This document shows positions 2,608 to 47,385 of a DNA stretch of 64,000 nt, in pieces. The stretch is taken from NCBI GenBank assembly GCA_026989455.1, contig JALSJH010000060.1, positions 695 through 64,694 on the forward strand, given 5' to 3'. Source of the DNA: Chromatiales bacterium. GTDB taxonomy: Bacteria > Pseudomonadota > Gammaproteobacteria > RBG-16-57-12. Made by a program: the position numbers and the translations under genes. The stretch's first letter is position 1. Every line of letters starts with the position of its first letter. The notes beneath the pieces were generated by a model. The model saw only the letters and a list, made by a program, of their open reading frames with translations. It had not been told where the DNA came from and did no database searches.

Positions 2608-2619
2608 CCCACTGCGCCG

Positions 2620-5367: not shown

Positions 5368-5370
5368 TAA

Positions 5371-9538: not shown

Positions 9539-9543
9539 TATCG

Positions 9544-24277: not shown

Positions 24278-24349
24278 ACTCGCACCCTCTCTGCCACTGT
24301 GAAATAACCTGCCATGATTTTTATAGATCAACAGCAACTCAATCATCAA

Positions 24350-24844: not shown

Positions 24845-24914
24845 AATACCCTCCCATTTTCACTTAGTTTGAAACAATATTAATATCGGTGCCGTAACCG
24901 CACCCCAGCAAACG

Positions 24915-25439
24915 TCAATCAACCTTAATACGATGCCGCTGAGTCGGAGCCGCCTTGGGTAATCTCAGCTCCAGCACACCATCTTTGAAGCTTGCCTTGG
25001 CCTTTTTACTCTGCACTGATGCTGGCAAAATCACGGTACGGACAAACGAGCCCTGTGATATTTCGCGGCGGTGGTAATCCCCCTTCTCCTCTTTACGCTC
25101 CTGCCGAGTAGAGGCTTTGATGGTAACGCTATCTGCGGTCACAGAGAGATCCAGGTTTTTTTTGTCAACCCCTGGCAACTCAGCACGCACCACAATCTCA
25201 TTATCTCGCGCCACCACATCCACTTTTGGCTCATGCCCATCAAAAGGCGCTTCCAGATTTGCCCAAGCTGGCCACTCCTGACGCAGTGGCTGCATCCAAC
25301 CACGAGGAAAAAATCCCTCAAACATCCGATCCATCTCCTCAAATGGGCTGACTTCCCGCTGGTGCGGATGCTGAAGCTCCCCACCCTTTGCAGCCGACGA
25401 AAGTTCACCTCTATTTTTAATCTTCTCTTTTTTGGCCAT
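24915..25439 (-). CDS. Small heat-shock protein (Hsp20/alpha-crystallin)
   Basis: 174 aa from ATG 25439, with an AAGGAGA SD 8 nt upstream; the track's first codon is GTG at 25442. IVVRAELPGVDKKNLDLSVTADSVTIKAS...ASFKDGVLELRLPK. Confidence 0.9.
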   Translation of the reverse strand: MAKKEKIKNRGELSSAAKGGELQHPHQREVSPFEEMDRMFEGFFPRGWMQPLRQEWPAWANLEAPFDGHEPKVDVVARDNEIVVRAELPGVDKKNLDLSVTADSVTIKASTRQERKEEKGDYHRREISQGSFVRTVILPASVQSKKAKASFKDGVLELRLPKAAPTQRHRIKVD

Positions 25440-25800
25440 CACCCTTTCTCCTTATAAATATCTAACCATACAACAATCTGAATAATACCCCCTCCAAAAC
25501 TGCTTGGAGAGCATCAGACTCTCACAACAAGAAGTTATTTTCTGCTACTTAAGTTACACATACTTTGCTACTGGTCATGGGGGAAAAAGAAAAGGTGATT
25601 AGATGGAGGGTGCAAAAGGGTAAACCAAGCCAATATAGTCTGCTATTGCGGCTTAGGTGGTAGTGCACTTAGAGGTTGAGTCTGCCTCGCACCCAGATCA
25701 TGCAGGCGTTCGGTTTTACAGGGGAATTTACGAAGAGGCTCCTATCTGTAATTACGGGAGATGGGGGATTATCTTAAAATCAACGTAATTATTCAGCGAC

Positions 25801-27966: not shown

Positions 27967-28997
27967 TGGTTTAAACCTTCAACATCAATCCCCTCGAAAG
28001 ACTTCATGCCTTCTAGGTTCAGGTTTTCGAACTCCACCTCCAGCTCCACACCAGAACCCAACGTTGCATCTAAAGTACGCAGTGCACCACCAGCCCCTTC
28101 ATTGGTCGGATTATCGGCAGCACTGCCGAGCGCACCATTGATCGCCGAGTTTCCTCTCAAAGAACCCGGATTAACCGTCACCCCCATACCAACAAGTTCA
28201 GCACTGACCCCGCTGCTGGTTTCATTACCTACGGTGACATCTGCACCTCCACAAATTATCGCGTTGTCATTAAACCGATCACTCAACACATACTCAGTCA
28301 CTGCCACAGCATTACTGCGCTGGCCTGCTTGTTGATAAAACAGGGAGACCCTGTTTTGCTGTACGTCACCATCACCCCAATCGAGTGGTTGAAAGCGGAG
28401 CAAAGTATCGGTGCGTTGATCAAACTCACTGATCTCAATCACATCACGATCATACTCAGGCGGTAATATCTCACCACATCGATCCATACTTTCATAAAAC
28501 ACCACCCGCACACGACCACTACAACCAAAGCCTTGGCCACGCAGTGTCAGCGTTACCGTGTCGTGTCGATTAAATTCAGACTGCGAAATCGAATCAATAC
28601 GAATGTTTTTTTGTTGAATCGATTCGAGCCGTTTAATGCGGTCACCATCAATCAACACCTGCCAAGCAGCAGGCAGGTAAGCGGCACTGCCGCAAGCCTC
28701 ACCAGACCATAAGCCCGGCCCCAATTCGATATCATAACGACCCTGCTGATCTGTCTTAGTGGTAATAAATTTATAGGGTGTATCGGGTTGCCAAAAGCGT
28801 ATCGTTACCCCAGCCGCTTGGTCACCCCCGACTTGGCGTACTTGCCCCGTCACAGTCACTGGGCTTTCACCCGGATCATAGGAGGTCAATTGATTGATCG
28901 CTCTCGCTGCATCAGAGTTGAGTTGAAGTGCCTGCGCCGCCATGGACAACGCCATAAAACAGCCGAGAGATAAACAGCCGATAAATAATCGCTTCAT
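27963..28997 (-). CDS. Secreted protein with CarboxypepD_reg-like and IPT/TIG-like beta-sandwich domains
   Basis: 344 aa from ATG 28997 (GTG 29000 is the alternative). Signal peptide MKRLFIGCLSLGCFMALSMAAQA. GQVRQVGGDQAAGVTIRFW...TKTDQQGRYDIELGPG is carboxypeptidase-regulatory-like, and DTVTLTLRGQGFGCSGRVRVVFYE is IPT-like. It overlaps both the upstream stop and the downstream start. Confidence 0.6.
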   Translation of the reverse strand: MKRLFIGCLSLGCFMALSMAAQALQLNSDAARAINQLTSYDPGESPVTVTGQVRQVGGDQAAGVTIRFWQPDTPYKFITTKTDQQGRYDIELGPGLWSGEACGSAAYLPAAWQVLIDGDRIKRLESIQQKNIRIDSISQSEFNRHDTVTLTLRGQGFGCSGRVRVVFYESMDRCGEILPPEYDRDVIEISEFDQRTDTLLRFQPLDWGDGDVQQNRVSLFYQQAGQRSNAVAVTEYVLSDRFNDNAIICGGADVTVGNETSSGVSAELVGMGVTVNPGSLRGNSAINGALGSAADNPTNEGAGGALRTLDATLGSGVELEVEFENLNLEGMKSFEGIDVEGLNQ

Positions 28998-29965
28998 CAC
29001 TTTGCCCTACCTGGGCGCAACACCCAACTGGATGGCTGCGATCGCTGCCCCACCTTAGACACCGCCAGCACTTGGTAGCGGTAGTGCCATTGTGGTTCAG
29101 CAGAGTAATCAACAAAGTGCATCTCATGCAGTACGCCGGAAATTACTTCAAACCCCTGCCCTTGATCGCGCATCACGATGACTCCTGACTGCTGGTCATC
29201 TGGCAATTGCCATTTTAAATAGGGCTGTTGAGTCTCGCTCACACTCAATTTCAAGTTAACGGGTGCAGCTATTTCACCATAACGTGGTTTGAACAACACC
29301 CCACGGGTCGCGGCACTTTCATTGCCATAAACATCCACCGCCGCAACGCGATAGCGGTAGGCCTGCCCCCCCACCGTGTCACTATCAACAAACGCTGTTT
29401 TTTCAATCAGGGTTCGATTTATTTTTGTAAAACCTTGTTCAGAGCCCACAGTAAGTCGATAGACCTGGTAACCAGCCAGATCGAGATCACGATTGGGCAA
29501 CCACTGCAAAGCCACCCCAAGCTCGCCATCGGCAACACGCAGTTGCAACGGCAAATGAGGCGCACGGCTATCGGGTAAGCGCATTGCTAATCGATTGGAC
29601 AGCGCCGATACATTGCCTGCCGCATCCACCGCTGCTAACTGATAAAAGTATTCAATTTCGGTGTTGGCGGTCTCTTTCACCTGGGTACTCATGTCACCCT
29701 TCTGTGCATCCACCAATGAGACAGTTTTTACAACACGAGGCGTTCCTTTGGCGCGTGAGCGGTAGACCCGATAAGCGGTCACATCGGTCGCTGGGCTGGC
29801 CTGCCATTGCAGTCGCAATTCACTTTTACTCAGTGCTTCCACTTGGTTTAATACCACCGGAGGGGGCGCTTCACGGTCGGCCTTAATATCCGCCACCTGT
29901 GGCTGCGCCAGCACCGCAGGCAGCCAGAAAAACAGCACACTACTGAGCATTATTTTTTTTATCAT
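28997..29965 (-). CDS. Secreted protein made of three fibronectin type III-like domains
   Basis: 322 aa with signal peptide MIKKIMLSSVLFFWLPAVLA. Three repeats each carry W-x-(n)-Y-x-V-Y-R and Y-x-Y-x-(V/L)-x-A-V-(D/S)-x-x-G-(N/Q)-x-S motifs: LQWQ..AYRVYRS..YFYQLAAVDAAGNVS; LQWL..GYQVYRL..YRYRVAAVDVYGNES; LKWQ..YRYQVLAVSKVGQRS. ATGA overlap with the giant gene stop. Confidence 0.75.
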   Translation of the reverse strand: MIKKIMLSSVLFFWLPAVLAQPQVADIKADREAPPPVVLNQVEALSKSELRLQWQASPATDVTAYRVYRSRAKGTPRVVKTVSLVDAQKGDMSTQVKETANTEIEYFYQLAAVDAAGNVSALSNRLAMRLPDSRAPHLPLQLRVADGELGVALQWLPNRDLDLAGYQVYRLTVGSEQGFTKINRTLIEKTAFVDSDTVGGQAYRYRVAAVDVYGNESAATRGVLFKPRYGEIAAPVNLKLSVSETQQPYLKWQLPDDQQSGVIVMRDQGQGFEVISGVLHEMHFVDYSAEPQWHYRYQVLAVSKVGQRSQPSSWVLRPGRAK

Positions 29966-32900
29966 TGCCCTGCCTCATACATCGGTAGATCGCACAGATC
30001 GATATTACAAATACGGATGTTTTGTGAAGCAGGAAGACCGCCCCACTCACCCGATTGATTAGATATGAATGGCACACCCACGTCACCATTAATGAAGGTT
30101 GCACCTAAGAACGGTGATACCGCTGCACTCTTGGCAGGAAATTCACCAAAACCAAACATCATTTGCTGACGCATTGCACCGTCATCAATCCCATTTCGCA
30201 ATACCAGCCACAACTCGGTTTTACTCACTGCACTCAAAGCGGTACAAACAGCATTATTCAGCACTGTTTCCCCGGCATTGTTCATAAACTCACTGGCCAT
30301 TACGAAAGGATTAAACTCCCCAGTTGGACAGGCCAGCTCTTTCTTAATAGCCGCCACCACCGGGCTTCCCAGCATAACTCTCATCTTCAACCCAAAAGCT
30401 GCACTCTGATCACTCACATCACCTTCAACAAAAGAAGCTACCTGAGCTTCCAACCCTTGTAGAGGTATCTTATGCCCCGCCAGCGTTAAGGTGATGTTGG
30501 GATTAACACACGCGCCATACGAAAACTGAACCGCATCATCGATCAGTTCGCCTCGACTTTCCTCCGTCATATCACCCGCCAATGTCACACCTAGCAAGCT
30601 ATTTAATAGCGGAAATTTGAGACTGCCGCTTAAACCCGTTCGGGTGCCGAAGCTCAATGTGGTATTAGTTTTATCGTAAAACGCACCAACGTTTACCGAG
30701 CCACTCACCGCCAACGACAGAGGAAATGGCATCACCCCCACTTCCAGCTGACCACACTGCACTACATCAACATTTTGAACGAGATCAAGTGCGTAGTTGG
30801 CCAAAGGTTGGTCAATAGTGGTAGGAAAGTCACTCACCAAACCACTAACCTGAACCTCACCCATGGTATTACTAAGAATCTCCAGCCCGGTTTTACCCTG
30901 ATAGGAGAGCGACAGGCCATCGCTTTCAGAGTGGCTAAAATAGGCTTCAAAATCAGTATTCACCCCACCAACATAACTACCTATGCAAGTGAAATCGCCC
31001 TCCTCACAGCCACTCGCTGCACTAAAGGCCAGTATCTGCCGCCCCCCTTCAGTTGCCTGTTGCAATAAACCCATATGACTCCCTATAAATGGAAGAGCCA
31101 GCTTTCCATACAACTCCAACATGAACGACTCTGTCTCTAGGGTGCTAAGGTTCCACTGCTGCTGCAAACCGCCACTGACTCCGCTAAAGCCCATACCATC
31201 GCCCGCCAGCTCATCAAAGAGTGAACGCTGTTGAATACGGCCAATCGCCGAGGGTGACTGATTCACCGCGATCAGCGAAGCAATACCATTGATGGCCAAG
31301 CGACCTAAATCCACCCCTGTCACCACCGCTTTTTGTGCGATTTCTGCACTGCCATTGACAACAGCTATCGCGTTATAGGCCATTGCATCTGCAAGCAGAC
31401 TGTCCATATCCCCCACATAGTCACTCGCTGGACTCAGTTGAGGTTGCCCCCCCACTATATCGATAAAGGGAACGGTTTCCAGATAGGCCCATTGCGTTTG
31501 TAATGGCATGGTTTTGCGCATCTCGGCAAACAAGGCAAGCAAGGAATAAGGAATCGCATAGGCCCGGTCAGCACCACGCCAAGTGTCGCCATCTGACAGG
31601 TCAGTTTCCAAAGCGTTACCCGAGACAATTCGCAGCAGCTTGGCGGTTGGATCGTTAGGGTTTTTGCTCATGGCAATTACGATTGCTTGGCTGGTATTGG
31701 GCACACCTTCAATCAAGCTTAATGCGTCGGAAACAACCTGAATTTCATCCATCCCGGCACTTTTTATTCCAAGACTGAGGAAGTCACTAATCCCCGACCC
31801 CTTACTTGGCTCGGCACTGCCGTTCCAACTAATGTTCATCACCTCACGCAGAGCACTCCCTTGAGGTAACAGTGTATTAATTGCACCAATGCCCATATTC
31901 CCCATCAGACTAACGGAAGCAAAAGTCGCCCCTTTGCTTAAATCTGTTTCGGCGATTTGGCGTAACAACGTGGCGACGGGAAGGTCGTCTTCCATGTCAG
32001 CTACGGTGACCGCATCACAATTGCTGGCATGAATCTCGGCAAACCAGAGATTACTTAAATCGGCACCCAGATGAGCCAGTACTTTAGGTGAGTGCTCTGT
32101 TTTGCCCAGCCAGCCCTTGTCATGACTAGTCAGTAGGCTTTTGATGGTCATAAAGGGAGTCATTGATAAGGCTGGAGGTAGGGCAATACCCAAGCCCTCA
32201 TTCACCCGACAATGCAGTGCCGCAATGCCATAACTCCCTAGGTAGGCATCTAACACTGTTTCTCCCTCTAACTGACCCGTGGCTGCTTGCTCTAGCAGGT
32301 TCCAGTTGTTATCAATAAAAGTGAGTTGCCAGTCACCCAAAGCATCGGCGGTATTCACCAAATCAGGCTGTAAACCTTGCTCACGGAAAAAGTCCAATAT
32401 CACCCCTTGAGTAAGGCGCGCAATGACGATGGGCAGATGCTCTCCTTCAGACACTGATAACTGTGAAGCCAGCATTTCACTACTCTCACGCATCATCGTA
32501 AATGCCACCGGTAGCGGCTGTGGTAGCGGTGTGATCATGTTATTAACCACAGGCAAACCTAGCAGGCGATTCCCCAGCCTCAAACCATCCACCGCCAGCT
32601 GGGTCTCTATCGATCCTGGCTCTTTAGCCACTGTTACGGTCATAGCCAGACCCTGTCCAATAATCGAAAACCACACCGTTTCTTCGGTCGTCTCGTTACT
32701 CGTTTGTAAATTGCCAGCCAGTGTTTCTAAAAAGTCGAGTGCGGTGAAATTTTCACCACTACTAATCAAGCTATCGATAAACACGCCACTCAGTTGCAGA
32801 CCACTGCTCAACAGGCACGCTTCGATACTCTCAGTGCAATCGAATTTTTCTCCTCCATTTAATAGGGGTTCGATCAGTTGACTTTTCAGTTCACTGGCCA

Positions 32901-35900
32901 AAAATTGGGCGGGCTGATCTTTACCCGGCAAATGCAACAAGCTACCCAGCAGTTGAAGCTCAGGTCGACCAGAAAAATCAGCATTGCTAACCCCTGCTAC
33001 CACCGCCGTGACCATCGACTCACCCCGCTCTGCCATGAACAAAATTAGTTGACCGATACCGGCCAAACGATAATCACCTTCCGCTGTGATGGCGGGATCG
33101 GGTATCTCACTCAGTAGATGGTAAGCGAGGCGTAGGTTGGCTTCGTTATTTGTATCCAACTCGGCCTCGGCCAATGCCTCTGCGGCGAGTCGATATTTAT
33201 TGCCGGGTTCTATGCGGGTTAAGTCTGGCGTACCATTAATATGAGGCAGGAGAAACTGCTCCAACTCCGCCATACTCACGTCACCTAGGTCTATCGAAGC
33301 GATTGAGTCCAGCGCACCACTCACCATTGAAGCAATTTGTGCGGCGGCATCGTTAAGCCAATTGTCAATTTTTGCTTGTAGATCATCCGCCGCGTTGAAT
33401 AGGGGGGCATTGAGCTGTACATGGGTACCTTTCATGGCAGCCAAGCGGCGCAACTCACCAATAACGACCCGCAGAGCTTGACGTGCTGTGGCATCGGCCA
33501 TGTCGAAACTTTCACCCATGGCCCTAAGCATCTGCGCTATCGCCTCCCGCAAGGCGGCGCTGTTATTGCCCTCCAATGATTCACTAAATTTAGGTAAGTC
33601 ATGCGGCCCCTTGATTGAGGCCGGAAAGGTCGCGGGGGAGCTGCTAATCATCTCTTCCAATACGCTTAAATCAGCATCACCTCCCAGTCCGTGCAGCGAG
33701 GCCGAGAGATCGAGATAATCCCGCACATCCTCTATAGTGCAATCATGATCTTTGGCACAGGCTGAGAGCTGGTCTGCCTTGACTTCTAACGCGCCAGCTT
33801 CTGCCCCAAGGTTATAAAAAATCATATCCTCCGCGCCCAATCCTTGGGCGGTGTTTTTCATCTCAAGCGAGGCTTTAATGAGTCGATAAACCGTCTCTAA
33901 GTCTTGATTAACCGCATCATCCAGAAGAGACTCTTGTGCGGTGATGTAGGGTGAAATTCCTTCAATAATGTCGTCCATAGAGGTGCTTTCTTCACCACCC
34001 AGTCGCACCATCAAGCTATCAATATTTATCAACCGCTCTGCTTTAGCCTTAAACTCCGACCAATCACGACCATCGTCATTGTTCACCGCCTGATTCGCGG
34101 ATGCCAGTGCCGTCTCCAGTGCGGCCATAACATTCGCATTTTCTGACAGAGACTCCCACCCACTCGCCTCGCTATCCCCTTGAGCAAGTGAGGTGATAAG
34201 AATGATTTTTTTGATCTCTAGTTCAAGGTCATCGGGGTGATCCTGCAACCACTCAACCCGGCTATCCAGCAAGCGTTGAATACGCTCCCTGAAACGTGCA
34301 TCGGCCTGCGGCTGAGCCACACGAGCCAGCACTTCACGGATTTCAGTAATGGGGTGGAACAGATGCTCCAAAATATCATCGACATCAGGTCGGGCAGCGG
34401 CACTCTCCAGTGCATTTAGATCTTCGTCTAACTCCTCTATGACTCGCGCATCAAGGCGGCGTAGTCCCGCCAGTTGTTCATTGGGCAGTGTTGATTTTAA
34501 ATAGACAATGAGCCTATTCTGACCGACCAAAGAGTCGAGTGACGCGGCGACTTCAACTTCGGGTCTACCTGTTCGCCAGACGACATTTTCCAGCCAATCG
34601 GTTTGACGATCACTCATCAGTGCCAGCGGGTTACGCCATTGACCATCGATTTTGGCTCGCAGGTAGCTATTGTTATCAACCTCAATCAGCGATTCACCAA
34701 CTTGGGCATTAAGACCCCGCCCTTTTTCAAAGTGGCTGGCAAGGGCTTTTAGCTTTTCCAACTCTTGAAAATCACCGCCTGATAATTCGTTATAACGAAG
34801 TTCCCATTCAGCTTCCCAAGCTGCTTTAAGTTTAGTTTTCACCGCATCACGATAAGCCACTAATTGATCGTCACGATAATAGACTAGCTGCCCATCACTG
34901 TGGCGTTGCTCCGCTGTGCTGTTCACTAAGTCAATCAGTCGTGAGAGGGTTTGAAGATGACGTACCCAGCCCGGATAGTCTTTTGATGCGGGTAACGCCA
35001 CCTCATCAAATGAACCTGCACGAAAGTAAAAATTAGTGTAGTAAGCCACTAGATCATTCGAGTCAAAATTGCCATTTTGATCAAAATCGTGAGCGGACTC
35101 TGGGGTGGCAGCGGTGATGCGTTGCTCCATATCCATCGCGGCGACACGCTGCGCCAAGCTGATGCCCCTACCCTCAGCAAGCCGTAAACCCAAGCTAGTG
35201 ACCGATGCCACTCTGCTGTCATCCTCGCACATCAAACGGCCCTCTAGCGCTATAAGGTTCAGTGCAAGTTGTATATCGCTTTCAATCACCACTCTATTTT
35301 CATTATTGATAATAGGGTTTATAATACGATTCCAAGCCCGATCCGTGGCCTCACACATTAGGCTGTACGTCTCCTCCAGCTGTGTACCCTCACCCAACGA
35401 GGCAATTACCTTCAGCAGTATGCTGACCTTGCTTTTCAGTGCCGCTTCACTGCACTGCTCAAGAGCCGTACAGACCTCACTCAAGGCTTGGCTATGGTGG
35501 TAATAATCGAGGTAAAACATCTCGCTAGAGTGTTGGCGAAAATTGTGGCTACCTCTCCACACGGCCAATCCTAATGCTTCACCTCTCTCCTGCAAATGAG
35601 CAATGCGTCCTGCCGGTGAGGCCGAAGGATTAGCCGCCCACTCAGCCACAGCTTGGGGGCTTAACGCCGTATCATAACGCTTGAACTCTGCCATCATCAG
35701 GCTAGTCAAGGCTTCAGCAGCGATCTGTTTGTGCTGATCATTCAATTCATTTATCGGTAGGCCTAAGTCACGGGCCTCTACCATCAGACTATCGAGCTGC
35801 AGTAACAGATAGTCACTCGGCTCGATTTTTAGCTGGCGTTCCAACTCAAAAATATCCAGCCACATCTGATGTTTCAGTGCTTGGTTAACACCACTGGCTG

Positions 35901-38900
35901 GAGTGATTGCTGGCCGCTCATCCGGCAGGTAAAACACCTGATAGCGCTCCACTGGGGAGTAACTCACGGAAAATTCCATTGCCGTATTATCAAATTTAAT
36001 GGTGGTGGTGCGCACACCATCTGCACTCTCTTTACGATGAATTGTCAAGTCACTATCAGTACTTTGCATCACCTGCTGGCGGCTGCCATCACTCTGACTC
36101 ACGACCACACCACCGTCATCAAGTTGCGCTACGGTCAGGCTACTGGTAGCGGAACCGCTATTCGTGACAAGGTTGATATGTTCGACTGGCACACCACCGA
36201 CACTGGCCTGACCTGTTGCGATATCAATCGACCAGAGGTCATTGCTATTTTCTCCTGCCAAATTCAGTTGGCCATTTTCCAGACTCACACCATCCGGTAA
36301 GCTATTCTGGTCATTTTGTGCGGCTGCCAGTTGGCTACTGCTGAGTTGCAAGGTAAGAAGTTCGGTTGGGATCACCCCTGAAGGATCAGGAATAGCGACA
36401 CCTGGCGGGAGGGCCTCCGGCATAGCGTAAATTTCCCACTGGCCATTGCCAAAGGTGTGTAGTGCTTGCTGTTCGTTGGGTTGATAATTCCAAGTCTCGG
36501 TGCCTTGAATGACCACGCGGTGCATCAAACTATCTTCTGATTGAATGATCGTCGTTGCCAAATCCTGCAAAGAGTAGATACCCTCCTCTTCAGACATCCT
36601 TAAAAGAAGCGTTTCACTGCTGTCACCCGCCCTTAAAACAACAATACCACCGCTATAAGCCACTTCCCAAGTAGGATCCCAGCCCTGAACCGTGTCAGCT
36701 ATGCGGCCGAAATATTCAACCAACAAGTCGGGATCAAGCATATCCATCCCCACCGACCAAGTGGCTCGATCTCTTGGATCACTGAGTGACTGAACTTGGA
36801 TAAAAGCCCCTTCACTATTGTTTGTGTCGACAATGCAGCCGTGACCTGGAAATGGACATAGCCCACCATCAGCGTCACGGAAAACCTTGGTTACTACAAC
36901 ATCCCCCACGGATTGTGCCGCGATGCTCTCAGCCGTGTCTGACAGTGTCGGCATCTGATCTGCCATGTACACGGTATAGGGTGTATGTGTACCGTAACTC
37001 AGCGCACTAGTAACTTTTATCAGGGGTTGTCCAGCCTCCAGTGTCCCCATAATGAGATTCCCAGCCTCATCTTTATATTCCAATATAGAGGGTTCAGCAC
37101 TGGCAAACTGACCATTCCAAAATGACATAAACAAGTCTTGCTCTTTCTCCTCGTCTGTTCGCTTACGCCACTGGTGGAAGGAAAAAAATTGTTTGATACC
37201 ACCGCCGTATTCCTGATGTCCTTCTGGATAATATTGGCTAATGATGCCAAGCGTTAAGTCCACCTCACGCCAACTGCCATCGGCACGGGTCTGCCGTAAG
37301 CGAATGACATCGCCATTATCATCCACTGTTTTAACCAAACCAATCAGATTAAAATCAGCATGGGCGATGATTGATTTTGCTTTTTGTATGGCGGTTTTTC
37401 CGGCGGATGTCGGCTCTTGCTGCCCGGCCTCGTTGAGCAGTTTAATCAAACTGTCATCTAACACGACACTGAGATTATCTTGAGTAAAATCGATAATGGG
37501 TAAGGCACGGGCCAAGGCGGGAATCGCCTCTAACAAAGGCTGGCTTGCTGCGAACAGTATGGGCAACAGCTCAGGCAGTTGTTGCTGTACAACAGCGGCG
37601 ACATTTTGGCTATTCTCTGTATCCAACACAGCGAGCAACCCCATTAAGGCCATTAATTTTTCTAGCTCAGGACGTGCTGCAATACCGCTTGGATCACAGA
37701 CCTTAATATTATTGTAGAGCTGTTGTGAATGAGCCGTCATGACACTCATCGATGGCTTTTGCGCCCCAACTTCGCGCACCATTTTAAGCAGGTAGCCCAT
37801 ATTGGCCAGACCATATTGCTGGCACTGATTAAGCATGCTCAGATCTTGCACTTCATCGATCAAGGCCAGTGGCAGTTGCACCAGATCCACCTGACTGAAG
37901 TCATTGTCTGCTATTTGCGGCGCATGAACTAACAGTTGATCCAGCTCTTGCAGTAGCACGCGGTAGATATCCAGCAATTGCGCCGCTTGCGGTGAGCCGG
38001 TCTCAATCAACTGTTGAAACGCCAGTGGTATGGCTTGGGCGATGCGCAGCACTCGCTGTGCATCGGCAGTGGCAGCATCACTACTGAGGCTTTGATCGAG
38101 CTCGTAAAAGCTGAACTCTAATGCGTTTAATACCCCCTGAAGTTGAGTGATAATTTGTGAATCGACATCAATACCGACATCAATACCGAGTGACTGCAAG
38201 GCACTTAATGTTTGGTTTACCCCTTGCAGTGCCCAAGCAATTTGCCGCGCCTCGGTCTTCAACTGCCCCGCGAGAGGCTCTAACGTATGTGCCGCAATGC
38301 CCAGCATGGCTTGCACACTGGCAGGCAAGGCCAAACCGGTATTACCGCAGTGGCTATTCGAAAAATCGCCTTGCGCGAACTCATTGATGAGGGTCTGTAG
38401 ATAGCGAACCCCGATGGCTTCTGTGCGGCCCGACGGCACGTTTTGCAACGCCGAGACGGTTAAACCCAGCATCGGTTTGATCTGCGCTGTCTGGATCGGC
38501 AAACCGGCTTGTGTGAACAGGGGTTGCAAGCTGTCGGCTTGTTGGCACATCACCCCCACTAGATCAGCCACCGCATCGCCTAGGCGACGGGGGTTGATAG
38601 TGCCGCCCTGATTTAACTCTTTCACTAAGTTTAAGGATTCGTCGGCCAAACTCACCGCCAGCGAGGCGAGGCGTTTCTCATGCCCTTCGGGAATGATGGT
38701 TTCCACCGCATGAGCGGCATCGACCGCACGCTGTGAGATATTGACGACATCCTGATATGAAAGCCGCCAGTTTTGGTCCACTAAAGTACGCGCGGCACCC
38801 ACCACCACATGGGCGGTTGCCAGCCCGGCATCGGTCAGGTCATCAATAGAGACTGGCAGGGCTTGCAGCCCGGTTTGGCTGTAGGCTTGGTCAAGGTCCA

Positions 38901-41900
38901 CCCCTTGCAACAGGGGAATAGCGACATCAAGACTATGCAGGCCAATACTGGCGACCTCTTCAGGAGTCAGCTCATCGAAGTTGGCCACTGCGCCTAAGGC
39001 TCGCACCGGCAAGGAGGCTAAGTCGATGTAGAGCAGGGTCTCACCTGTACGGCACTCGGGCTTCTCTTGGCAGATTGCTTTGAGTAGATTCAGCGCCGAC
39101 TCGACAGTTATTAAGCCATTACCGACCGCATTGCGGATCTCCTCGGGACTAGGGAGACCACCAGCGGCAACTGCCATGCCCGTAGCCAGTGCAACCGATT
39201 GAACAAATACCGTCGCATCTACCGCCGTTTCAACCATCGCTTCGCCGGTACCTTCAACTCCCATGGCGCCAGCAAAACCGCCGCCTAACCGGGTAACCGT
39301 CTCCATGCCTCGTGCACCCGCCAGAACAGCTTTGAGTATATCGACCCCGGCACCCAAGCCCAGCCGCTCGTAACCCACATCACCCCTACCCGTGCTGCGC
39401 CACACAGCATAACCATCCTCACCTTGGATAATCTCTTGATCGGGGTGTATGCCCGCTTCGGCCAGTCCTTTAATCGATACCGCTTTGAGCAACGTCAGTT
39501 CAGCTTCACCCACAAAGGCTTTAAAGGCTTTTGGGTTTGTAACAGTCTCATCACCCGCAGAGACCTCTGCAACATAAATACTCAGTGCATCAGGATCTCG
39601 ACCATAGGTATTCACAAACTGTAAATCTGCCTTTACTTTAAGCGCATCATCATCGCCAAAACTGCCGTTTTCAATATTGATGCCCATGCGAATTTCTGGC
39701 ACCTGCGCGCCCAATGCGGTGTGGTGCACTTTCACCTGGCGGGGGCCGAAAATGCTGAAATTCACATCACCTTTGATCTCAATAAGGGGCTGGGCTGTGG
39801 CGATGTCATCTCTATCAGGTGGCTGCTGGTTGCCGGTATAGGGTAGAAAACGGATGGCATTAACCTCAAATGCTTGGCCGATAAACTGAATATCGCCAAC
39901 GGGGGTTATTTGGGTCTCTGATAGCTGGCCATTGGGGAGAATATAAGTGTCGATCTGAAAAGGGACTTCATTGTTTAGGGCGACAAATTCATCACCGCCA
40001 AAATCACTGTGTACAGGGAGAGAAAGCCCCATGCCGGTCAGCACTAGGCGCTGGTTTTCCGCATCAAACAGTAGGTTATTTGGGGTAGATCCCGGCCTAT
40101 ACAATCTCATGTCCGCTGCAAAAGATAGTTGCCTCGAATCACTCGCCTGCACAGGACTATGTAGTTTGGCCTGCCAATAGGCCAGCTCCCAGCTCATTTC
40201 TGATGGCATGGTCAGGCCATCTGCTGCAATATTCAGTTGGGCTTCTTGGTCAAAGTCACCTTGGAAGGGGAAGTTCTGTGCCACCGGGTAAGGCACATGG
40301 AGCTGCCCATTGGCAAAGGAGTCTGTTAATGCGGCCTCGGTAAATTTAAACCAGCGGGTATTCATGATGGTGGAGAAGCCTTGCACGACATAGTGGCGTT
40401 GGTCTTCTACCTCCACCCATTGGCCATCGATCCCCTGCCCGGTGACTAAAAAAGCACCACGATGAAAACCTGAAGGCCGATCAGCATGGGCACCATGCAA
40501 AGACCAGCCCTTGTTAAGCTCACCATCCTGCAACAACAAACCAGCGCGTTCCGTCATGGTTCTAGTCAGTGCTTCTCGCCACAGCGTCGCGGCATCATGC
40601 CCCATCTTGGCCAATGTTTCTGAGCTAGCATTGGGGAATTCATGGTAGCCCTCTTGAACCTCCTCGCCGATATACAAACGCGCTTGCCGCGGCTGATAAT
40701 TAAAGTTGCCAAAACGTAGGTTCATGCTGGAATCGATCAACGGCTCGGTCTTAAACAGATCCACGCCATTATTAGAGTCACGACGATGCAGATGTTGAAA
40801 TACCAACGTATCATTAGAGACAACCGCACTGTTTTCGGCGTTTGGCAGTTGCACATTACCGGCTAAATCAACACCACTCACTTTGGAGTTATCGAGGCCA
40901 AACTGGCCACTGGTTAACTGAAGAGTAAAGCCATAGGGCTGCAATAAACTGAGTCGCTCTGCGGGGGCTTGATTAAAAAAATCTGTCACCCGTTGCACGG
41001 GCTGCAGTTCGATATCATCACCACTTACCCCTTGGGGTGAATAGTTCAGCCAGTTCGCCCGACCATAGATAAATGCGGTGTTGGGGTGGGTGGTACTAAA
41101 CAGAGCATTGGCCGCACTCACCTTTAGCCGTAACAAGGCATCATGAAAACCGATCCCAACAAAGCCTTCCTGATCAGAATAGTCACTGTAATTAAGGTGT
41201 TGTGAGGCATCGATCACCAGCGTACTGCCTGCGAGGCGCAGGGCGAGATCATCTTGTTTAAGGCGAATATCGGGCCACTCATTATTAAACTCATAACGAG
41301 CAACGAACTCACCACCATTGAGGATTTCCAATTGCGGGAACTGAATTTTACCCGTATGTGCTACGTTGATAACCTCGGCTGCTTTTTTTCCAATAGAGGC
41401 CGTGGGGGTGACCACTCTTTGGCGGGTACTAAGCTCGGGTAATTGGTAGGCTAGGTCGATGGCTACACCCGTCACATTTTGTCCGAGCTGAACTCCCCCC
41501 GTATTAACTGGGTTGGCAACCCCAGCTGCTTTTTTTCCGATAACGGAGCCGTGGGTAATCTCCCTTTGGCGGATATTAAACCCGGGTAATTGGTAGGCTA
41601 AATCAGCGAACGCACCGGTAGTGTTAATCATCAAACTTTTGAGTTCAATCAGCTGCCCCTGAATATCCAGGGGGTACTGTTTGTCGCCCTCTAGGGTGAT
41701 CTGTCCACCGTCGAGTCGTGCGTTAAGCGGGTTGTTCGGCATACTCACGACAACATTATTCATCTGCATTTTTAGCGACTGTTCGCGACCATCACCCCGC
41801 CAAGTGGTTGTAGCCTGCGCCGTAAGCTCTGCTTGGCGTGGGGTATTGTTGTTAATGATGGCCGAACCTGAATCTGCCTGATTCATCTCCAACACAAAAC

Positions 41901-43656
41901 CGGCGGCATGCACATATTTGGGAAGGCCACCCGGCAGTGTGGCGTAAAGGTTAGCCGGATCACTGAGGTCATTAAGCGTAATGAGGTAATGCCCTGCGGT
42001 GGGTATTTTCCATTTTGGGCTTAATAGTGTCCCCTCATGGCCTGACTCAACCAGTACTTTACCAATGATGATCGGAGCGCCATTAGGTTGTCCATTGTGA
42101 TCCAAGGGGTGGGCGACAAATTTGAGCGGAAAGGTTGGACTTTGATTGATTCCCTTTCCCTTATCGTATTGCGGGTTACAGGTGGGATATTGAGCAAACC
42201 AACCCCCTAGACCTTGGTCTTTAACATAAGCGGCAAACTGCACCGTTTGTTTTTCATCAAACACAAACTGGCCCCGCTCTAGTAAGGGCTGGGGATTAAT
42301 CGGCACTACTCCCGTCGTCAACTGCCACGCGCCCATGAGACGTGCAAACAGTAACTCTTTGGGAGGTGAGCGATTTTCACATCTATTTTCGATGCCGAAC
42401 TGCGGCACAAAACCATCACTCCACTCATCAAAATCAAGGGCATCCAAGCGGGCTTTTGGCTCGACCAGTAGATTAATATTTGCCTGATCAATGGGCTTTA
42501 CGCCATCGAATAGCACAACCTGTAAGTTTTCTAGCAACGGTGTAGAGGATTGAGTTGCGGTCATTGGAATACGCAGCTCCCCCGCTGTACCCGACAATGT
42601 TTCGATAGGAAATCGCCCTATGCTCACTCCATCTTGACGCACCTCAGCGTAAACAGAGCGGCTGGTGGCGTTGCCACTGTTTTGCACTTTGATACTCAGT
42701 TCATAACCTTGGCCTGCTGCTAGCTCTGCTGTGCGCAGGAGTGACTTTGACTCAAATAAAAAGTCATCTTCTAGCAATTTTGTTTGGAGTTGACGAACGC
42801 TAGCTACTGCTGTGGGGCTGGTCTGACGAGAGCTGGTGGCTTGGATATCCTGAATGAAAACCCCTTGAGCTATTGCGCGACCAGAGACACTAAAGGTGCC
42901 CCAGCGGGACTGCAAAGGTTCGGCATTTTTATCGGTTGGATAAGCCAGCACCTGCCAGCGGTATTGACCTGCAGTCAGTGATTTTCGCTGCGTGGAGGTA
43001 AGTGTGTAAACATCACCCTTGCTGATCGCTTTGATGACTGTTTGATAACGCTTTTTTTCTATCTGGCGTTGCACTTCAATTTTGTATAACCGAAAGCTGG
43101 CATCACCCTGCCAGCGAAAATAAACCTTATTCGGGTTCACTTCAATATTAAGGGGAAGCTTCAGCTCTAGCGGTGCCCCAGTTGCTGTACTTTTAGCTCC
43201 ATCGGCAACAAAATAGATGATGGTCGGTATGTTCGCTAGAACGGGCCCTTCGGAATTAGATAGCTCTAGCGTGACCTCATGACGACCCGGCATAATCGTA
43301 GGGAGGTCTACCCCTTGTTGGTTCGAACGAATTTCAACCTCTTTGCCAAAACTTAGCATCTGACTGGTTTGAGCAATCACCTGACCATTCACTCGCCATC
43401 TCGCGGTGAGATTGCCATTACCCAGATATTTAAACCGCGCCTTGGCATACAACCCTTTGGTAGAAGGGGCAACAGTGATGCTGCTGCGCTCATTAGCAAA
43501 ACTGAGGGCTACGCGCTCAATATATACTCGGTCAGAACCGGTTGAGGGCGCTGACTGCGTACCTACAATGTCGATATTCACCTCAATGGCTGCCTGCACC
43601 GGCCCGGTACATACAACCATCAGCAAAAATAAACTTAAGGCTTTGGATAAAGTCAT
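29962..43656 (-). CDS. Giant (4,564-aa) Sec-exported protein of unknown family
   Basis: Uninterrupted 13.7-kb ORF. The track start at 43713 is a TTG. ATG 43656 gives a canonical signal peptide, MTLSKALSLFLLMVVCTGPVQA|AIE. N-terminal Ig/FN3/CARDB-like beta domains, long Leu/Ala/Glu/Gln-rich tracts and a beta-rich C-terminus. I found no RTX (GGxGxD), TPS (NPNL/NPNGI), cadherin/VCBS or YD repeats. Confidence 0.85.
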   Translation of the reverse strand: MTLSKALSLFLLMVVCTGPVQAAIEVNIDIVGTQSAPSTGSDRVYIERVALSFANERSSITVAPSTKGLYAKARFKYLGNGNLTARWRVNGQVIAQTSQMLSFGKEVEIRSNQQGVDLPTIMPGRHEVTLELSNSEGPVLANIPTIIYFVADGAKSTATGAPLELKLPLNIEVNPNKVYFRWQGDASFRLYKIEVQRQIEKKRYQTVIKAISKGDVYTLTSTQRKSLTAGQYRWQVLAYPTDKNAEPLQSRWGTFSVSGRAIAQGVFIQDIQATSSRQTSPTAVASVRQLQTKLLEDDFLFESKSLLRTAELAAGQGYELSIKVQNSGNATSRSVYAEVRQDGVSIGRFPIETLSGTAGELRIPMTATQSSTPLLENLQVVLFDGVKPIDQANINLLVEPKARLDALDFDEWSDGFVPQFGIENRCENRSPPKELLFARLMGAWQLTTGVVPINPQPLLERGQFVFDEKQTVQFAAYVKDQGLGGWFAQYPTCNPQYDKGKGINQSPTFPLKFVAHPLDHNGQPNGAPIIIGKVLVESGHEGTLLSPKWKIPTAGHYLITLNDLSDPANLYATLPGGLPKYVHAAGFVLEMNQADSGSAIINNNTPRQAELTAQATTTWRGDGREQSLKMQMNNVVVSMPNNPLNARLDGGQITLEGDKQYPLDIQGQLIELKSLMINTTGAFADLAYQLPGFNIRQREITHGSVIGKKAAGVANPVNTGGVQLGQNVTGVAIDLAYQLPELSTRQRVVTPTASIGKKAAEVINVAHTGKIQFPQLEILNGGEFVARYEFNNEWPDIRLKQDDLALRLAGSTLVIDASQHLNYSDYSDQEGFVGIGFHDALLRLKVSAANALFSTTHPNTAFIYGRANWLNYSPQGVSGDDIELQPVQRVTDFFNQAPAERLSLLQPYGFTLQLTSGQFGLDNSKVSGVDLAGNVQLPNAENSAVVSNDTLVFQHLHRRDSNNGVDLFKTEPLIDSSMNLRFGNFNYQPRQARLYIGEEVQEGYHEFPNASSETLAKMGHDAATLWREALTRTMTERAGLLLQDGELNKGWSLHGAHADRPSGFHRGAFLVTGQGIDGQWVEVEDQRHYVVQGFSTIMNTRWFKFTEAALTDSFANGQLHVPYPVAQNFPFQGDFDQEAQLNIAADGLTMPSEMSWELAYWQAKLHSPVQASDSRQLSFAADMRLYRPGSTPNNLLFDAENQRLVLTGMGLSLPVHSDFGGDEFVALNNEVPFQIDTYILPNGQLSETQITPVGDIQFIGQAFEVNAIRFLPYTGNQQPPDRDDIATAQPLIEIKGDVNFSIFGPRQVKVHHTALGAQVPEIRMGINIENGSFGDDDALKVKADLQFVNTYGRDPDALSIYVAEVSAGDETVTNPKAFKAFVGEAELTLLKAVSIKGLAEAGIHPDQEIIQGEDGYAVWRSTGRGDVGYERLGLGAGVDILKAVLAGARGMETVTRLGGGFAGAMGVEGTGEAMVETAVDATVFVQSVALATGMAVAAGGLPSPEEIRNAVGNGLITVESALNLLKAICQEKPECRTGETLLYIDLASLPVRALGAVANFDELTPEEVASIGLHSLDVAIPLLQGVDLDQAYSQTGLQALPVSIDDLTDAGLATAHVVVGAARTLVDQNWRLSYQDVVNISQRAVDAAHAVETIIPEGHEKRLASLAVSLADESLNLVKELNQGGTINPRRLGDAVADLVGVMCQQADSLQPLFTQAGLPIQTAQIKPMLGLTVSALQNVPSGRTEAIGVRYLQTLINEFAQGDFSNSHCGNTGLALPASVQAMLGIAAHTLEPLAGQLKTEARQIAWALQGVNQTLSALQSLGIDVGIDVDSQIITQLQGVLNALEFSFYELDQSLSSDAATADAQRVLRIAQAIPLAFQQLIETGSPQAAQLLDIYRVLLQELDQLLVHAPQIADNDFSQVDLVQLPLALIDEVQDLSMLNQCQQYGLANMGYLLKMVREVGAQKPSMSVMTAHSQQLYNNIKVCDPSGIAARPELEKLMALMGLLAVLDTENSQNVAAVVQQQLPELLPILFAASQPLLEAIPALARALPIIDFTQDNLSVVLDDSLIKLLNEAGQQEPTSAGKTAIQKAKSIIAHADFNLIGLVKTVDDNGDVIRLRQTRADGSWREVDLTLGIISQYYPEGHQEYGGGIKQFFSFHQWRKRTDEEKEQDLFMSFWNGQFASAEPSILEYKDEAGNLIMGTLEAGQPLIKVTSALSYGTHTPYTVYMADQMPTLSDTAESIAAQSVGDVVVTKVFRDADGGLCPFPGHGCIVDTNNSEGAFIQVQSLSDPRDRATWSVGMDMLDPDLLVEYFGRIADTVQGWDPTWEVAYSGGIVVLRAGDSSETLLLRMSEEEGIYSLQDLATTIIQSEDSLMHRVVIQGTETWNYQPNEQQALHTFGNGQWEIYAMPEALPPGVAIPDPSGVIPTELLTLQLSSSQLAAAQNDQNSLPDGVSLENGQLNLAGENSNDLWSIDIATGQASVGGVPVEHINLVTNSGSATSSLTVAQLDDGGVVVSQSDGSRQQVMQSTDSDLTIHRKESADGVRTTTIKFDNTAMEFSVSYSPVERYQVFYLPDERPAITPASGVNQALKHQMWLDIFELERQLKIEPSDYLLLQLDSLMVEARDLGLPINELNDQHKQIAAEALTSLMMAEFKRYDTALSPQAVAEWAANPSASPAGRIAHLQERGEALGLAVWRGSHNFRQHSSEMFYLDYYHHSQALSEVCTALEQCSEAALKSKVSILLKVIASLGEGTQLEETYSLMCEATDRAWNRIINPIINNENRVVIESDIQLALNLIALEGRLMCEDDSRVASVTSLGLRLAEGRGISLAQRVAAMDMEQRITAATPESAHDFDQNGNFDSNDLVAYYTNFYFRAGSFDEVALPASKDYPGWVRHLQTLSRLIDLVNSTAEQRHSDGQLVYYRDDQLVAYRDAVKTKLKAAWEAEWELRYNELSGGDFQELEKLKALASHFEKGRGLNAQVGESLIEVDNNSYLRAKIDGQWRNPLALMSDRQTDWLENVVWRTGRPEVEVAASLDSLVGQNRLIVYLKSTLPNEQLAGLRRLDARVIEELDEDLNALESAAARPDVDDILEHLFHPITEIREVLARVAQPQADARFRERIQRLLDSRVEWLQDHPDDLELEIKKIILITSLAQGDSEASGWESLSENANVMAALETALASANQAVNNDDGRDWSEFKAKAERLINIDSLMVRLGGEESTSMDDIIEGISPYITAQESLLDDAVNQDLETVYRLIKASLEMKNTAQGLGAEDMIFYNLGAEAGALEVKADQLSACAKDHDCTIEDVRDYLDLSASLHGLGGDADLSVLEEMISSSPATFPASIKGPHDLPKFSESLEGNNSAALREAIAQMLRAMGESFDMADATARQALRVVIGELRRLAAMKGTHVQLNAPLFNAADDLQAKIDNWLNDAAAQIASMVSGALDSIASIDLGDVSMAELEQFLLPHINGTPDLTRIEPGNKYRLAAEALAEAELDTNNEANLRLAYHLLSEIPDPAITAEGDYRLAGIGQLILFMAERGESMVTAVVAGVSNADFSGRPELQLLGSLLHLPGKDQPAQFLASELKSQLIEPLLNGGEKFDCTESIEACLLSSGLQLSGVFIDSLISSGENFTALDFLETLAGNLQTSNETTEETVWFSIIGQGLAMTVTVAKEPGSIETQLAVDGLRLGNRLLGLPVVNNMITPLPQPLPVAFTMMRESSEMLASQLSVSEGEHLPIVIARLTQGVILDFFREQGLQPDLVNTADALGDWQLTFIDNNWNLLEQAATGQLEGETVLDAYLGSYGIAALHCRVNEGLGIALPPALSMTPFMTIKSLLTSHDKGWLGKTEHSPKVLAHLGADLSNLWFAEIHASNCDAVTVADMEDDLPVATLLRQIAETDLSKGATFASVSLMGNMGIGAINTLLPQGSALREVMNISWNGSAEPSKGSGISDFLSLGIKSAGMDEIQVVSDALSLIEGVPNTSQAIVIAMSKNPNDPTAKLLRIVSGNALETDLSDGDTWRGADRAYAIPYSLLALFAEMRKTMPLQTQWAYLETVPFIDIVGGQPQLSPASDYVGDMDSLLADAMAYNAIAVVNGSAEIAQKAVVTGVDLGRLAINGIASLIAVNQSPSAIGRIQQRSLFDELAGDGMGFSGVSGGLQQQWNLSTLETESFMLELYGKLALPFIGSHMGLLQQATEGGRQILAFSAASGCEEGDFTCIGSYVGGVNTDFEAYFSHSESDGLSLSYQGKTGLEILSNTMGEVQVSGLVSDFPTTIDQPLANYALDLVQNVDVVQCGQLEVGVMPFPLSLAVSGSVNVGAFYDKTNTTLSFGTRTGLSGSLKFPLLNSLLGVTLAGDMTEESRGELIDDAVQFSYGACVNPNITLTLAGHKIPLQGLEAQVASFVEGDVSDQSAAFGLKMRVMLGSPVVAAIKKELACPTGEFNPFVMASEFMNNAGETVLNNAVCTALSAVSKTELWLVLRNGIDDGAMRQQMMFGFGEFPAKSAAVSPFLGATFINGDVGVPFISNQSGEWGGLPASQNIRICNIDLCDLPMYEAGQ
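41320..41615 (-). repeat. Tandem 147-nt (49-aa) internal duplication inside the giant gene
   Basis: The peptide units ..DLAYQLPGFNIRQREITHGSVIGKKAAGVANPVNTGG.. and ..DLAYQLPELSTRQRVVTPTASIGKKAAEVINVAHTGK.. lie exactly 147 nt apart (D codons at 41604 and 41457). The DNA aligns by eye (gctgctttttttcc..ccgtggg..ctttggcgg..gggtaattggtaggcta). Confidence 0.8.
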
Positions 43657-46485: not shown

Positions 46486-46746
46486 TGAAGCTCTGATCAA
46501 GCCTTGAGTGTTTTATGCTGACAGAAGGGCAAACTCGACTCGTGACACCTCTTATCCCAGATATTTTATAAATTATCCGCGATAAGAACTGTGTCGAAAA
46601 ACATTACACTCAACCATCCCCCCAAAAACAGATCTATTCATTTTCATATATTTCAATCAGTTATAATCTGGCCTGATAAATGCCTCACTAATTTAAGTGT
46701 AAAAGATAATCAAATTAGTTGGTTTAACTTGGGGGAGATCACTCGA

Positions 46747-47385
46747 ATGAAAAAATTATTACAAAATATTGCACTATTTTCAGCATTAGCTATCGGCGGT
46801 ACTGCCAATGTACTCGCAATGCCCATCGTTGATCAGTCACAAGCGACAACCAATGGGGGGGTTGCTTTCTGGAGTGACCTGCAACAGGCACAAACCTTCA
46901 CCGCTGGCATTACAGGCCAACTGACACAGCTTGATGTGCCACTGGGTCTCAATCGGGGTACTGGCTTCACGGGCAATGAAACCGCATATATCTCACTGGT
47001 AGAGTGGGGCACTAATGCACCCGGCACTGTTCTGGGAAATACCAGCATTCTACTCAGCAGTGCATCCACACTGCAATCTCTGGATCTTACCTCTGAAAAT
47101 ATATTTCTAACTGCCGGTTCGATGTACGCCTTCGTACTCAGTAATGATTTGACCTATATCAGCCTGCCCGACCCATACCGAAATACTGGCATTCGAGTTC
47201 AGTGGGATGCGGATTCATACACCGGTGGCAGCTTATGGACCCATTACAGCAGTGGCTGGGCAGAGCGCTCCGGGGTAGATACTGTGTTCACAACCTATGT
47301 TAATGCCGTCCCTGCGCCCTCTGTTCTATTCCTTCTGGCGGGCGGTTTGGCAGGGCTTACCTACTTTAGAAGGAAGCTGGCTTAA
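46747..47385 (+). CDS. PEP-CTERM-anchored secreted protein
   Basis: 212 aa from ATG 46747, with a GGGGGAG SD upstream; the track start at 46591 adds 52 non-signal residues. Signal peptide MKKLLQNIALFSALAIGGTANVLA. C-terminal VPAPSVLFLLAGGLAGLTYFRRKLA matches a PEP-CTERM sorting signal (VPxP + TM + RRK). Confidence 0.75.
   Translation: MKKLLQNIALFSALAIGGTANVLAMPIVDQSQATTNGGVAFWSDLQQAQTFTAGITGQLTQLDVPLGLNRGTGFTGNETAYISLVEWGTNAPGTVLGNTSILLSSASTLQSLDLTSENIFLTAGSMYAFVLSNDLTYISLPDPYRNTGIRVQWDADSYTGGSLWTHYSSGWAERSGVDTVFTTYVNAVPAPSVLFLLAGGLAGLTYFRRKLA

Follow-up and report, generated by a model that had tools for sequence, protein, structure and literature searches.

Of the giant proteins known from bacterial envelopes, most consist of a small repeated module, and the locus described here raises the question of what a giant protein is, and where it works, when almost nothing in it repeats. 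The locus lies in a 64,000-nucleotide stretch of DNA from a Chromatiales bacterium (assembly GCA_026989455.1, contig JALSJH010000060.1, positions 695 to 64,694 of the forward strand), hereafter the window, in whose own numbering coordinates are given. Its central gene, on the minus strand at 29962–43656 according to the listing of open reading frames (ORFs) and their translations, encodes a protein of 4,564 amino acids counted from an ATG. The ORF opens at a TTG at 43713 and ends at 29962, the ATG at 43656 is the probable start, and residue r of the giant occupies window bases 43656-3r+1 to 43656-3(r-1). We lean towards reading this protein as an orphan extracytoplasmic mosaic, which would form a helical scaffold or shell and work together with a dedicated outer-membrane (OM) gene module. 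The most informative facts about it are that its family is tiny and orphan, and that it travels with this module.

Read from the N-terminus, the giant consists of a signal peptide followed by ~1,400 beta, ~670 helical, ~490 mixed, ~1,560 helical and ~400 beta residues. A preliminary description of this DNA, made from the letters alone, had singled out two long tracts (1504–2103 and 2593–4149 in residue numbers, separated by an insert at 2104–2592) as rich in Leu, Ala, Glu, Gln and Asp and poor in Gly, Pro and aromatic residues, and the composition of the protein confirms this. Together, L, A, E, Q and D account for a fraction of 0.48 of tract 1 and 0.44 of tract 2, against 0.36 in both the N-terminal 1,400 residues and the insert; F, W and Y account for 0.037 and 0.058 of the two tracts, against 0.087 in the N-terminal 1,400 residues and 0.078 in the insert, and Gly plus Pro for ~0.10 in both tracts against ~0.14 elsewhere. 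The compositional shift in the tracts is real, but moderate, and the composition of the giant is not low-complexity.

The same description had called the tracts helix-like. AlphaFold2 (AF2), run with the six-sequence family alignment on two tiles covering residues 1440–2110 and 3365–4564, supports this wherever the tracts were modelled: the first model contains ~30 helices, with 73% helix and 0% strand over residues 1504–2103 (predicted local distance difference test, pLDDT, 49; predicted TM-score, pTM, 0.36), while the second shows 70% helix and 1% strand for residues 3365–4149 (pLDDT 46, pTM 0.29). Both models are poor because the family has just six sequences, and we therefore use their secondary structure alone and make no claim about the fold. 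Hydrophobic periodicity averaged on the family alignment is of the alpha type across residues 1400–2100 and most of 2600–4200, and Chou-Fasman propensities agree with the helical tracts. For residues 2593–3364, a helix classifier returned a score of 0.60, compared with 0.63 for the modelled helical part and 0.28 for the N-terminal region, although this classifier is crude, having been trained on the modelled parts with a training accuracy of 76%. Relative to predicted helices, predicted loops carry 3.8-fold more indels among the four distant homologues and are 2.1-fold richer in Gly/Pro, a comparison that is partly circular since AF2 used the same alignment.

Helical tract 1 can thus be placed at residues ~1431–2103 (37348–39366, minus strand; ~30 helices and no strands from AF2, with alpha periodicity) and helical tract 2 at residues 2593–4150 (31207–35880, minus strand; AF2 for 3365–4149, and propensity, periodicity and classifier for 2593–3364). 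Tile-wise structure prediction, which had been proposed as a check, indicates that the modelled parts of the tracts are not mainly beta, and Foldseek searches with both models returned no match at E < 0.01. The two models together contain 66 helices (median length, 15.5 residues), and as these predicted helices are short, the tracts as modelled are not a coiled coil. Short amphipathic helices joined by short loops, if predicted correctly, fit an irregular alpha-solenoid or a multi-helix shell, whereas coiled coils, repeat arrays and disorder do not match this pattern. As part of the reading that we favour, both tracts are probably genuine, folded, non-repetitive alpha-helical regions, which together span ~2,200 residues.

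That the giant holds no repeats beyond a single 49-residue duplication had also been noted, and this stands after three kinds of search. Self-BLAST found no significant repeat; an all-versus-all hhalign comparison of 44 overlapping 200-residue tiles of the family alignment (903 pairs) reached a top probability of 10%; and BLOSUM autocorrelation at offsets of 8–300 gave z values of at most about 4 apart from the duplication, with no significant offset in the tracts and no 11-mer or 22-mer periodicity. The duplication itself was picked up at offset 49 with z = 6.7 and doubles as a positive control. It is a tandem of residues 681–729 and 730–778 (41323–41616, minus strand) with 24 of 49 positions identical, located in a linker of variable length within the N-terminal region, and its second copy is missing in all five homologues, including the one that is 76–78% identical, which marks it as a recent, lineage-specific event. 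We found no tandem arrangement of homologous beta-sandwich units (Big, cadherin, FN3 or CARDB), and about half of the giant is helical; the proposal that its architecture is unlike that of beta-repeat adhesins therefore holds. The further suggestion of a solenoid or helical-repeat scaffold survives in part: the giant gives no Pfam match to TPR, HEAT, ARM or Sel1 repeats in any of the six members and has no periodicity, which removes the repeats from this suggestion, while an irregular solenoid or multi-helix assembly is possible for the tracts.

We searched exhaustively for relatives with residues 2593–3792, using a full HMMER scan against 1.84 billion representative proteins, and recovered five relatives and no more. 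All five are giants of 4,537–4,705 residues that align with the window protein end to end and colinearly. Genome and metagenome scans with the family alignment placed relatives in metagenome-assembled genomes of uncultured Gammaproteobacteria (loci L004, L005 and L006) and, on metagenome contigs, in L007 along with two short fragments, L009 and L010. The contig of L008 is that of L004, and an exact look-up added L011. A scan of genome contigs with tract 1 alone gave no matches. The window protein itself is found, letter for letter, in the public gene calls of two independent metagenome assemblies.

The closest homologue, that of L007, is 76% identical (76–78%), and the other four are distant, with 36–45% identity in tract 1 and 26–38% in tract 2. 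Between the window and L007, the ratio of non-synonymous to synonymous substitution rates (dN/dS) is 0.11 for tract 1, with 1 gapped codon, and 0.15 for tract 2, with 6 gapped codons. The tracts evolve under strong purifying selection, and the low dN/dS, the few indels and the colinearity of the six members together rule out disorder, junk and misassembly. On the opposite (plus) strand, ORFs of 132–152 amino acids are found at 32423–32881, 35105–35503 and 35869–36300; the minus strand is under such strong coding constraint that these are most likely spurious.

Comparisons with known families returned almost nothing. In Pfam, searched with the six members at E-values up to 0.05, the sole match is a marginal one to CARDB; NCBIfam has no match to the giant, nor does the PDB contain a significant match by sequence or family profile, PADLOC gave no match, and the protein carries no name in any source. 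The tract-1 profile has a marginal PDB match to 8es4 chain A 'Gp35' (E = 0.004, 18.9 bits, ~100 helical residues; residues ~1849–1950, 37807–38112, minus strand), which we set aside as most likely a compositional, helical chance similarity. A mobile-element or phage origin was likewise rejected, as viral contigs, plasmids and phages contain no relatives. In a motif scan, HExxH, Walker A and C-terminal KDEL were not found in any of the six giants, and CxxC, GGxGxD, LPxTG, RGD, GxSxG and DxDxDG occur sporadically at unaligned positions, with none conserved across the six and with GGxGxD, the RTX motif, not found in the window giant. On present evidence, the giant constitutes an orphan family; it is set apart from known families by sequence and profile, and a better model could reveal a known fold.

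Several features indicate that the giant leaves the cytoplasm, as the preliminary description had proposed. Its N-terminus, MTLSKALSLFLLMVVCTGPVQA|AIEV, reads as a classical Sec signal (residues 1–22, MTLSKALSLFLLMVVCTGPVQA|A; 43591–43656, minus strand), and comparable hydrophobic leaders are present at the N-termini of the full-length homologues in L005 and L006. The most hydrophobic 19-residue segment of the giant sits in this signal peptide, with a Kyte–Doolittle (KD) value of 1.99, and outside it no segment reaches 1.7, leaving no transmembrane segments; a conserved Gly/Ala-rich, moderately hydrophobic stretch at residues 1429–1501 peaks at KD 1.68 at residue 1483. From its sequence, the mature protein has a computed mass of ~492 kDa and an acidic pI of 4.6.

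The mature giant contains 28 cysteines, which can be read as 14 sequential pairs, many of them 5–7 residues apart: 426/493, 1529/1535, 1704/1770, 1945/1987, 2267/2274, 2729/2735, 2768/2810, 3300/3306, 3607/3614, 3816/3880, 4217/4224, 4301/4383, 4443/4471 and 4550/4555. Close pairs fall within the helical tracts (1529/1535, 2729/2735, 3300/3306 and 3607/3614), and a C-x4-C loop lies 10 residues before the C-terminus. Across the six giants, 17 of the 28 cysteines are invariant, among them C4301, C4383, C4443, C4471, C4550 and C4555. The giant thus combines a Sec signal with an even number of locally pairable, conserved cysteines, and from the signal, the paired cysteines and the lack of transmembrane helices we infer that it would reside in an oxidising, extracytoplasmic location.

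The regions flanking and separating the helical tracts are of a different character. The N-terminal region (residues 23 to ~1430; 39367–43590, minus strand) is mainly beta by periodicity and classifier, with Ig/CARDB-like modules; beta-type periodicity covers most of residues 1–1400, with a helix-like patch at ~1001–1100, the classifier gives a helical probability of 0.28–0.39, and the CARDB match (residues 307–356, E = 0.0028) is below the Pfam threshold. A beta N-terminus of ~1,450 residues had been described earlier, with the first tract beginning at 1504; helical sequence begins already at ~1431. The middle insert (residues 2104–2592; 35881–37347, minus strand) is mixed or beta and resembles the N-terminal region in composition; by periodicity and classifier, its description as beta-rich applies to residues 2401–2592, while residues 2104–2400 are ambiguous to helix-like. 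It is the least conserved region of the giant, with 29–35% of its positions identical in the four distant homologues and 72% in the close one. Small lipoproteins with the lipobox LSAC are encoded immediately upstream of the giant in L005 (9323–9826) and L011 (9492–9956); they are paralogous to the first beta domain at the giant's N-terminus (residues ~23–160), and none is present in the window.

At its other end, tract 2 is helical to ~4150 as had been described, and we add the correction that the last ~414 residues form a separate beta domain (residues 4151–4564; 29965–31206, minus strand) with conserved cysteine pairs. AF2 predicts ~16 strands of 10–18 residues between 4179 and 4522 at a pLDDT of 50–65, and beta-type periodicity runs across residues 4200–4400. 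Foldseek matches of this domain to BamA and TonB-receptor barrels are weak (E 0.017–0.5, TM-score < 0.25) and come from a low-confidence model, and the giant's C-terminus does not carry the aromatic beta-signal of outer-membrane proteins (OMPs).

The giant is not encoded in isolation. In all six loci (the window, L004, L005, L006, L007 and L011), five genes stand side by side, and the window's giant gene and the three genes that follow it are joined by overlapping stop and start codons. The second gene of this module (28997–29965, minus strand), whose start overlaps the giant's stop codon, encodes a 322-residue protein with a signal peptide and fn3 domains (Pfam, E = 1.2e-8), and its orthologues occupy the same position at 36–38% identity in L004, L005, L006 and L011 and at 76% in L007; in PHROGs, the matches found were of the fn3 type and to this protein only. 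The third (27963–29000, minus strand), kept in six of six loci, encodes a secreted, 345-residue beta-sandwich-like protein with a signal peptide and a weak CarboxypepD_reg match (E = 0.006) and with no relative in the PDB.

The fourth gene (25801–27966, minus strand) encodes a 721-residue protein that looks like an outer-membrane beta-barrel. It has a signal peptide, no cysteine in the mature part, a composition rich in S, N, G, D and T, beta periodicity and a C-terminus, ...SFExxWQ[F/L], that is conserved in four orthologues and resembles the OMP beta-signal; these features are those expected of an OMP, and the protein is for this reason a putative barrel. It is 40–46% identical in the four distant loci and 84% in L007, and has no relative in Pfam, NCBIfam or the PDB and belongs to no named OMP family. 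The fifth gene (43864–46485, plus strand) encodes an 873-residue lipoprotein with the lipobox LSGC, PKD domains (K319L-like, E = 9e-34) and ELWxxDGT repeats (TIGR04534, E = 1e-76) in 7 stretches, a motif on which we found nothing in the literature. Its orthologues are 39–48% identical and adjoin the module in all loci, directly downstream of the 721-residue gene and last in the operon in L004, L005, L006 and L011, and inverted in the window and L007, where the gene is divergent and upstream of the giant. When tiles of the giant were compared with the four accessory proteins using hhalign, the top probability was 2.3%, and the accessory proteins are therefore neither paralogues nor pieces of it.

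Beyond the module, no other neighbouring gene of the window is common to the distant loci, and the flanks differ. Four loci share a NarL/FixJ-type response regulator (68–76% identical) and a conserved membrane protein (55–70% identical), which has several transmembrane helices and an extracytoplasmic domain and may be the sensor of this regulator; the pair is located at 22399–24153 in L004, 31045–33632 in L005, 783–2592 in L007 and 32488–34118 in L011. L006 has instead another regulator, of the GerE type, together with a hybrid kinase, and in the window a PEP-CTERM protein gene (46591–47385) stands at the regulator position, with the regulator and the membrane protein not there. Library scans of the window detected no recognised secretion-system genes near the giant; there are no ABC transporter or membrane fusion protein (MFP) genes in the module, and the loci examined have no glycosyltransferase or synthase gene and no TcB/TcC, Rhs/YD or effector gene. 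A search of the window against Rfam gave no match. The remainder of the window is ordinary chromosomal content; at 2620–10862 and 23615–25442 (both minus strand) it includes a P-type cation ATPase gene adjoining a cluster for an Mrp/Mbh-like multisubunit antiporter, as well as a tandem pair of HSP20 genes with DUF6781 and UbiB after them.

Taken with the conserved neighbourhood, these observations suggest how the giant might work. It would be exported by Sec, fold in the periplasm and be oxidised there, with local disulfide staples, and would then act outside the cytoplasm with its four module partners (two periplasmic beta-sandwich proteins, a novel OM beta-barrel and an OM lipoprotein with PKD and propeller domains) as an envelope assembly. 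The barrel most plausibly serves as the giant's OM anchor or as its translocator; the helical mass of ~2,200 residues would provide a large, irregular structural scaffold or shell, and the beta modules (N-terminal Ig-like domains, insert and C-terminal sheet) would make contacts. A surface coat, an adhesion platform or a cargo-binding shell may be its role. Several points weigh against this reading. Both AF2 models are of low confidence (pLDDT 46–49, pTM 0.29–0.36), and the tertiary arrangement, whether solenoid, bundles or shell, is therefore not given by them; the modelled tiles cover residues 1440–2110 and 3365–4564, the family alignment comprises six sequences, and the exhaustive search for relatives was limited to residues 2593–3792. 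Surface localisation and the role assigned to the barrel are read from gene neighbourhood and sequence features, and the C-terminal beta domain may be membrane-embedded, or the giant may stay periplasmic.

That the module represents an undescribed OM export or anchoring pathway, in which the 721-residue barrel and its helpers would move or dock a disulfide-stapled, 0.5-MDa giant that forms a new, non-repetitive type of helical shell at the surface, is a tentative idea that we consider doubtful on balance. A little less probable still is a periplasm-resident or trans-envelope scaffold, for which the barrel and the lipoprotein would be docking partners and not a translocon. In that case the giant would not pass the OM, its helical mass would fill the periplasm or reach across it, and the arrangement would recall BcsC, PgaA and AlgK–AlgE of synthase-dependent polysaccharide export. 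The Sec signal and the lack of recognised secretion-system genes nearby would suit such a scaffold, as would the way in which tract 2 runs straight into a long-stranded C-terminal domain with weak BamA-like Foldseek matches, and disulfide pairs are as compatible with the periplasm as with the surface; but the giant has no TPR or Sel1 matches and no periodicity, no glycosyltransferase or synthase gene is present in the loci examined, the C-terminus lacks an aromatic OMP beta-signal and has conserved cysteine pairs, and 492 kDa would be very large for a periplasmic resident. The preliminary description had also raised a toxin-like shell, proposing a comparison with TcA, MCF and large clostridial toxins (LCTs). 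In a secreted toxin of this type, the helical tracts would form a shell or delivery domain, receptor binding would fall to the beta inserts, and some portion of the protein would insert into a target membrane. Helical regions alternating with beta inserts do resemble TcA, the protein is large and acidic, and the conserved Gly/Ala-rich stretch at 1429–1501, with its KD of 1.68, could be seen in this light. This proposal is nevertheless unlikely: none of the six members matches a Pfam toxin family, the PDB gives no sequence or profile match, there is no conserved catalytic motif or hydrophobic pore-forming hairpin, the loci contain no TcB/TcC, Rhs or effector gene, and the hosts are uncultured Gammaproteobacteria known from metagenome assemblies only. 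To our knowledge, Tc toxins and LCTs have neither a classical Sec signal nor a dedicated OM barrel, both of which are present here.

Two further explanations are less probable again. Vitellogenin and apoB are large lipid transfer proteins that alternate beta and amphipathic alpha regions, and a carrier of lipid or other hydrophobic cargo on this plan would share with the giant its beta/alpha alternation and its length of ~4,500 residues; vitellogenin, apoB-100 and lipovitellin appear at Foldseek ranks 6, 7 and 26 for the second model. Those matches have probabilities of 0.06–0.23 and TM-scores below 0.1 on a model of pLDDT 46 and are not evidence, and with no Vitellogenin_N or related Pfam match and no 11- or 22-mer periodicity, such a carrier is very unlikely. 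As with the BamA-like and TPR-like matches, we leave these Foldseek results uninterpreted because the models are of low confidence. The least credible explanation, to which we give hardly any weight, is that the giant is a cryptic repeat adhesin or an artefact of misassembly, non-coding sequence, low complexity or disorder, for which nothing speaks except size and absent annotation; an identical protein occurs in independent assemblies, five other loci hold colinear orthologues, purifying selection is strong, the composition is not low-complexity, and no repeats emerge with a method that recovers the 49-residue duplication. The envelope-associated helical mosaic working with its OM module is the reading that we favour.

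The family amounts to 6 clusters among 1.84 billion representatives and is yet well conserved in uncultured Gammaproteobacteria. Length and order are kept at 26–45% identity in every region, which implies one very large, specific fold that has no representative in Pfam, NCBIfam or the PDB. On present evidence, both the giant and its module are orphans, with the gene tied to an orphan barrel and to three further partners that are exported. Should the module turn out to be an export or anchoring device, it would represent a new route for placing huge helical proteins in or on the Gram-negative envelope.

By sequence and profile, the giant should not be filed under the TcA, LCT, RTX, beta-repeat adhesin, alpha-solenoid repeat or type V families, although it shares individual features with several of them. 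TcA proteins such as TcdA1 are very large and have a long alpha-helical shell broken by beta domains, without tandem repeats, and the giant likewise has a helical mass interrupted by beta regions and no repeat array. It is, however, nearly twice the size, has no sequence or profile similarity to TcA, lacks the Pfam VRP1, neuraminidase-like and receptor- or TcB-binding domains, and combines a Sec signal and paired cysteines with an OM barrel and a lipoprotein; its neighbours encode fn3, beta-sandwich, barrel and PKD proteins in place of TcB/TcC partners.

A Sec-dependent giant beside a dedicated OM beta-barrel gene also recalls type V and two-partner secretion (TPS), whose passengers are beta-helical. 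Neither the giant nor the 721-residue protein bears a TPS, POTRA/ShlB, Autotransporter or beta-helix signature in Pfam or NCBIfam, the giant is mostly helical, and the module has three additional conserved partners. Type I secretion of RTX and MARTX proteins differs in that the giant has a Sec signal and no GGxGxD motif, with no ABC/MFP genes in the module. In polysaccharide export, periplasmic helical scaffolds are fused or coupled to OM barrels (BcsC, PgaA, PelB, AlgK/AlgE); these scaffolds consist of Pfam-recognisable TPR repeats and are encoded with synthase genes. The giant is similar in being Sec-exported, in having a long helical region followed by a long-stranded C-terminal domain and in having an OM barrel partner, but it is 3–5 times larger and has no TPR repeats or synthase genes, and the Foldseek matches of its low-confidence models to TPR and designed-repeat proteins all have E > 0.1 and TM-scores below 0.2.

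LifA/Efa1 and Mcf1 are, like the giant, non-repetitive Gram-negative proteins of several thousand residues that combine helical regions with beta-sandwiches. In LifA, an alpha-helical 'vertex' domain is without known relatives, and the protein carries recognisable GT44, C58 protease, ART and DUF3491 domains (PMC12198386). By contrast, searches of Pfam, NCBIfam and the PDB found no GT44, C58/C80 or DUF3491 domain in the giant, which also has no catalytic motif. The view in the preliminary description that known giants are beta arrays is broadly right, but alpha-helical-repeat giants exist: Giant1-3 of Apilactobacillus kunkeei are giant extracellular proteins whose bulk is predicted to be alpha-helical, with internal repeats that build the helical part into a rod; their host is Gram-positive and their anchoring SH3b-like (PMC12863079). 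The window giant resembles them as an exported and mostly helical bacterial giant, and differs from them in its Gram-negative hosts, its OM module and its lack of repeats; it is this lack of repeats, and not helicity itself, that is its unusual feature.

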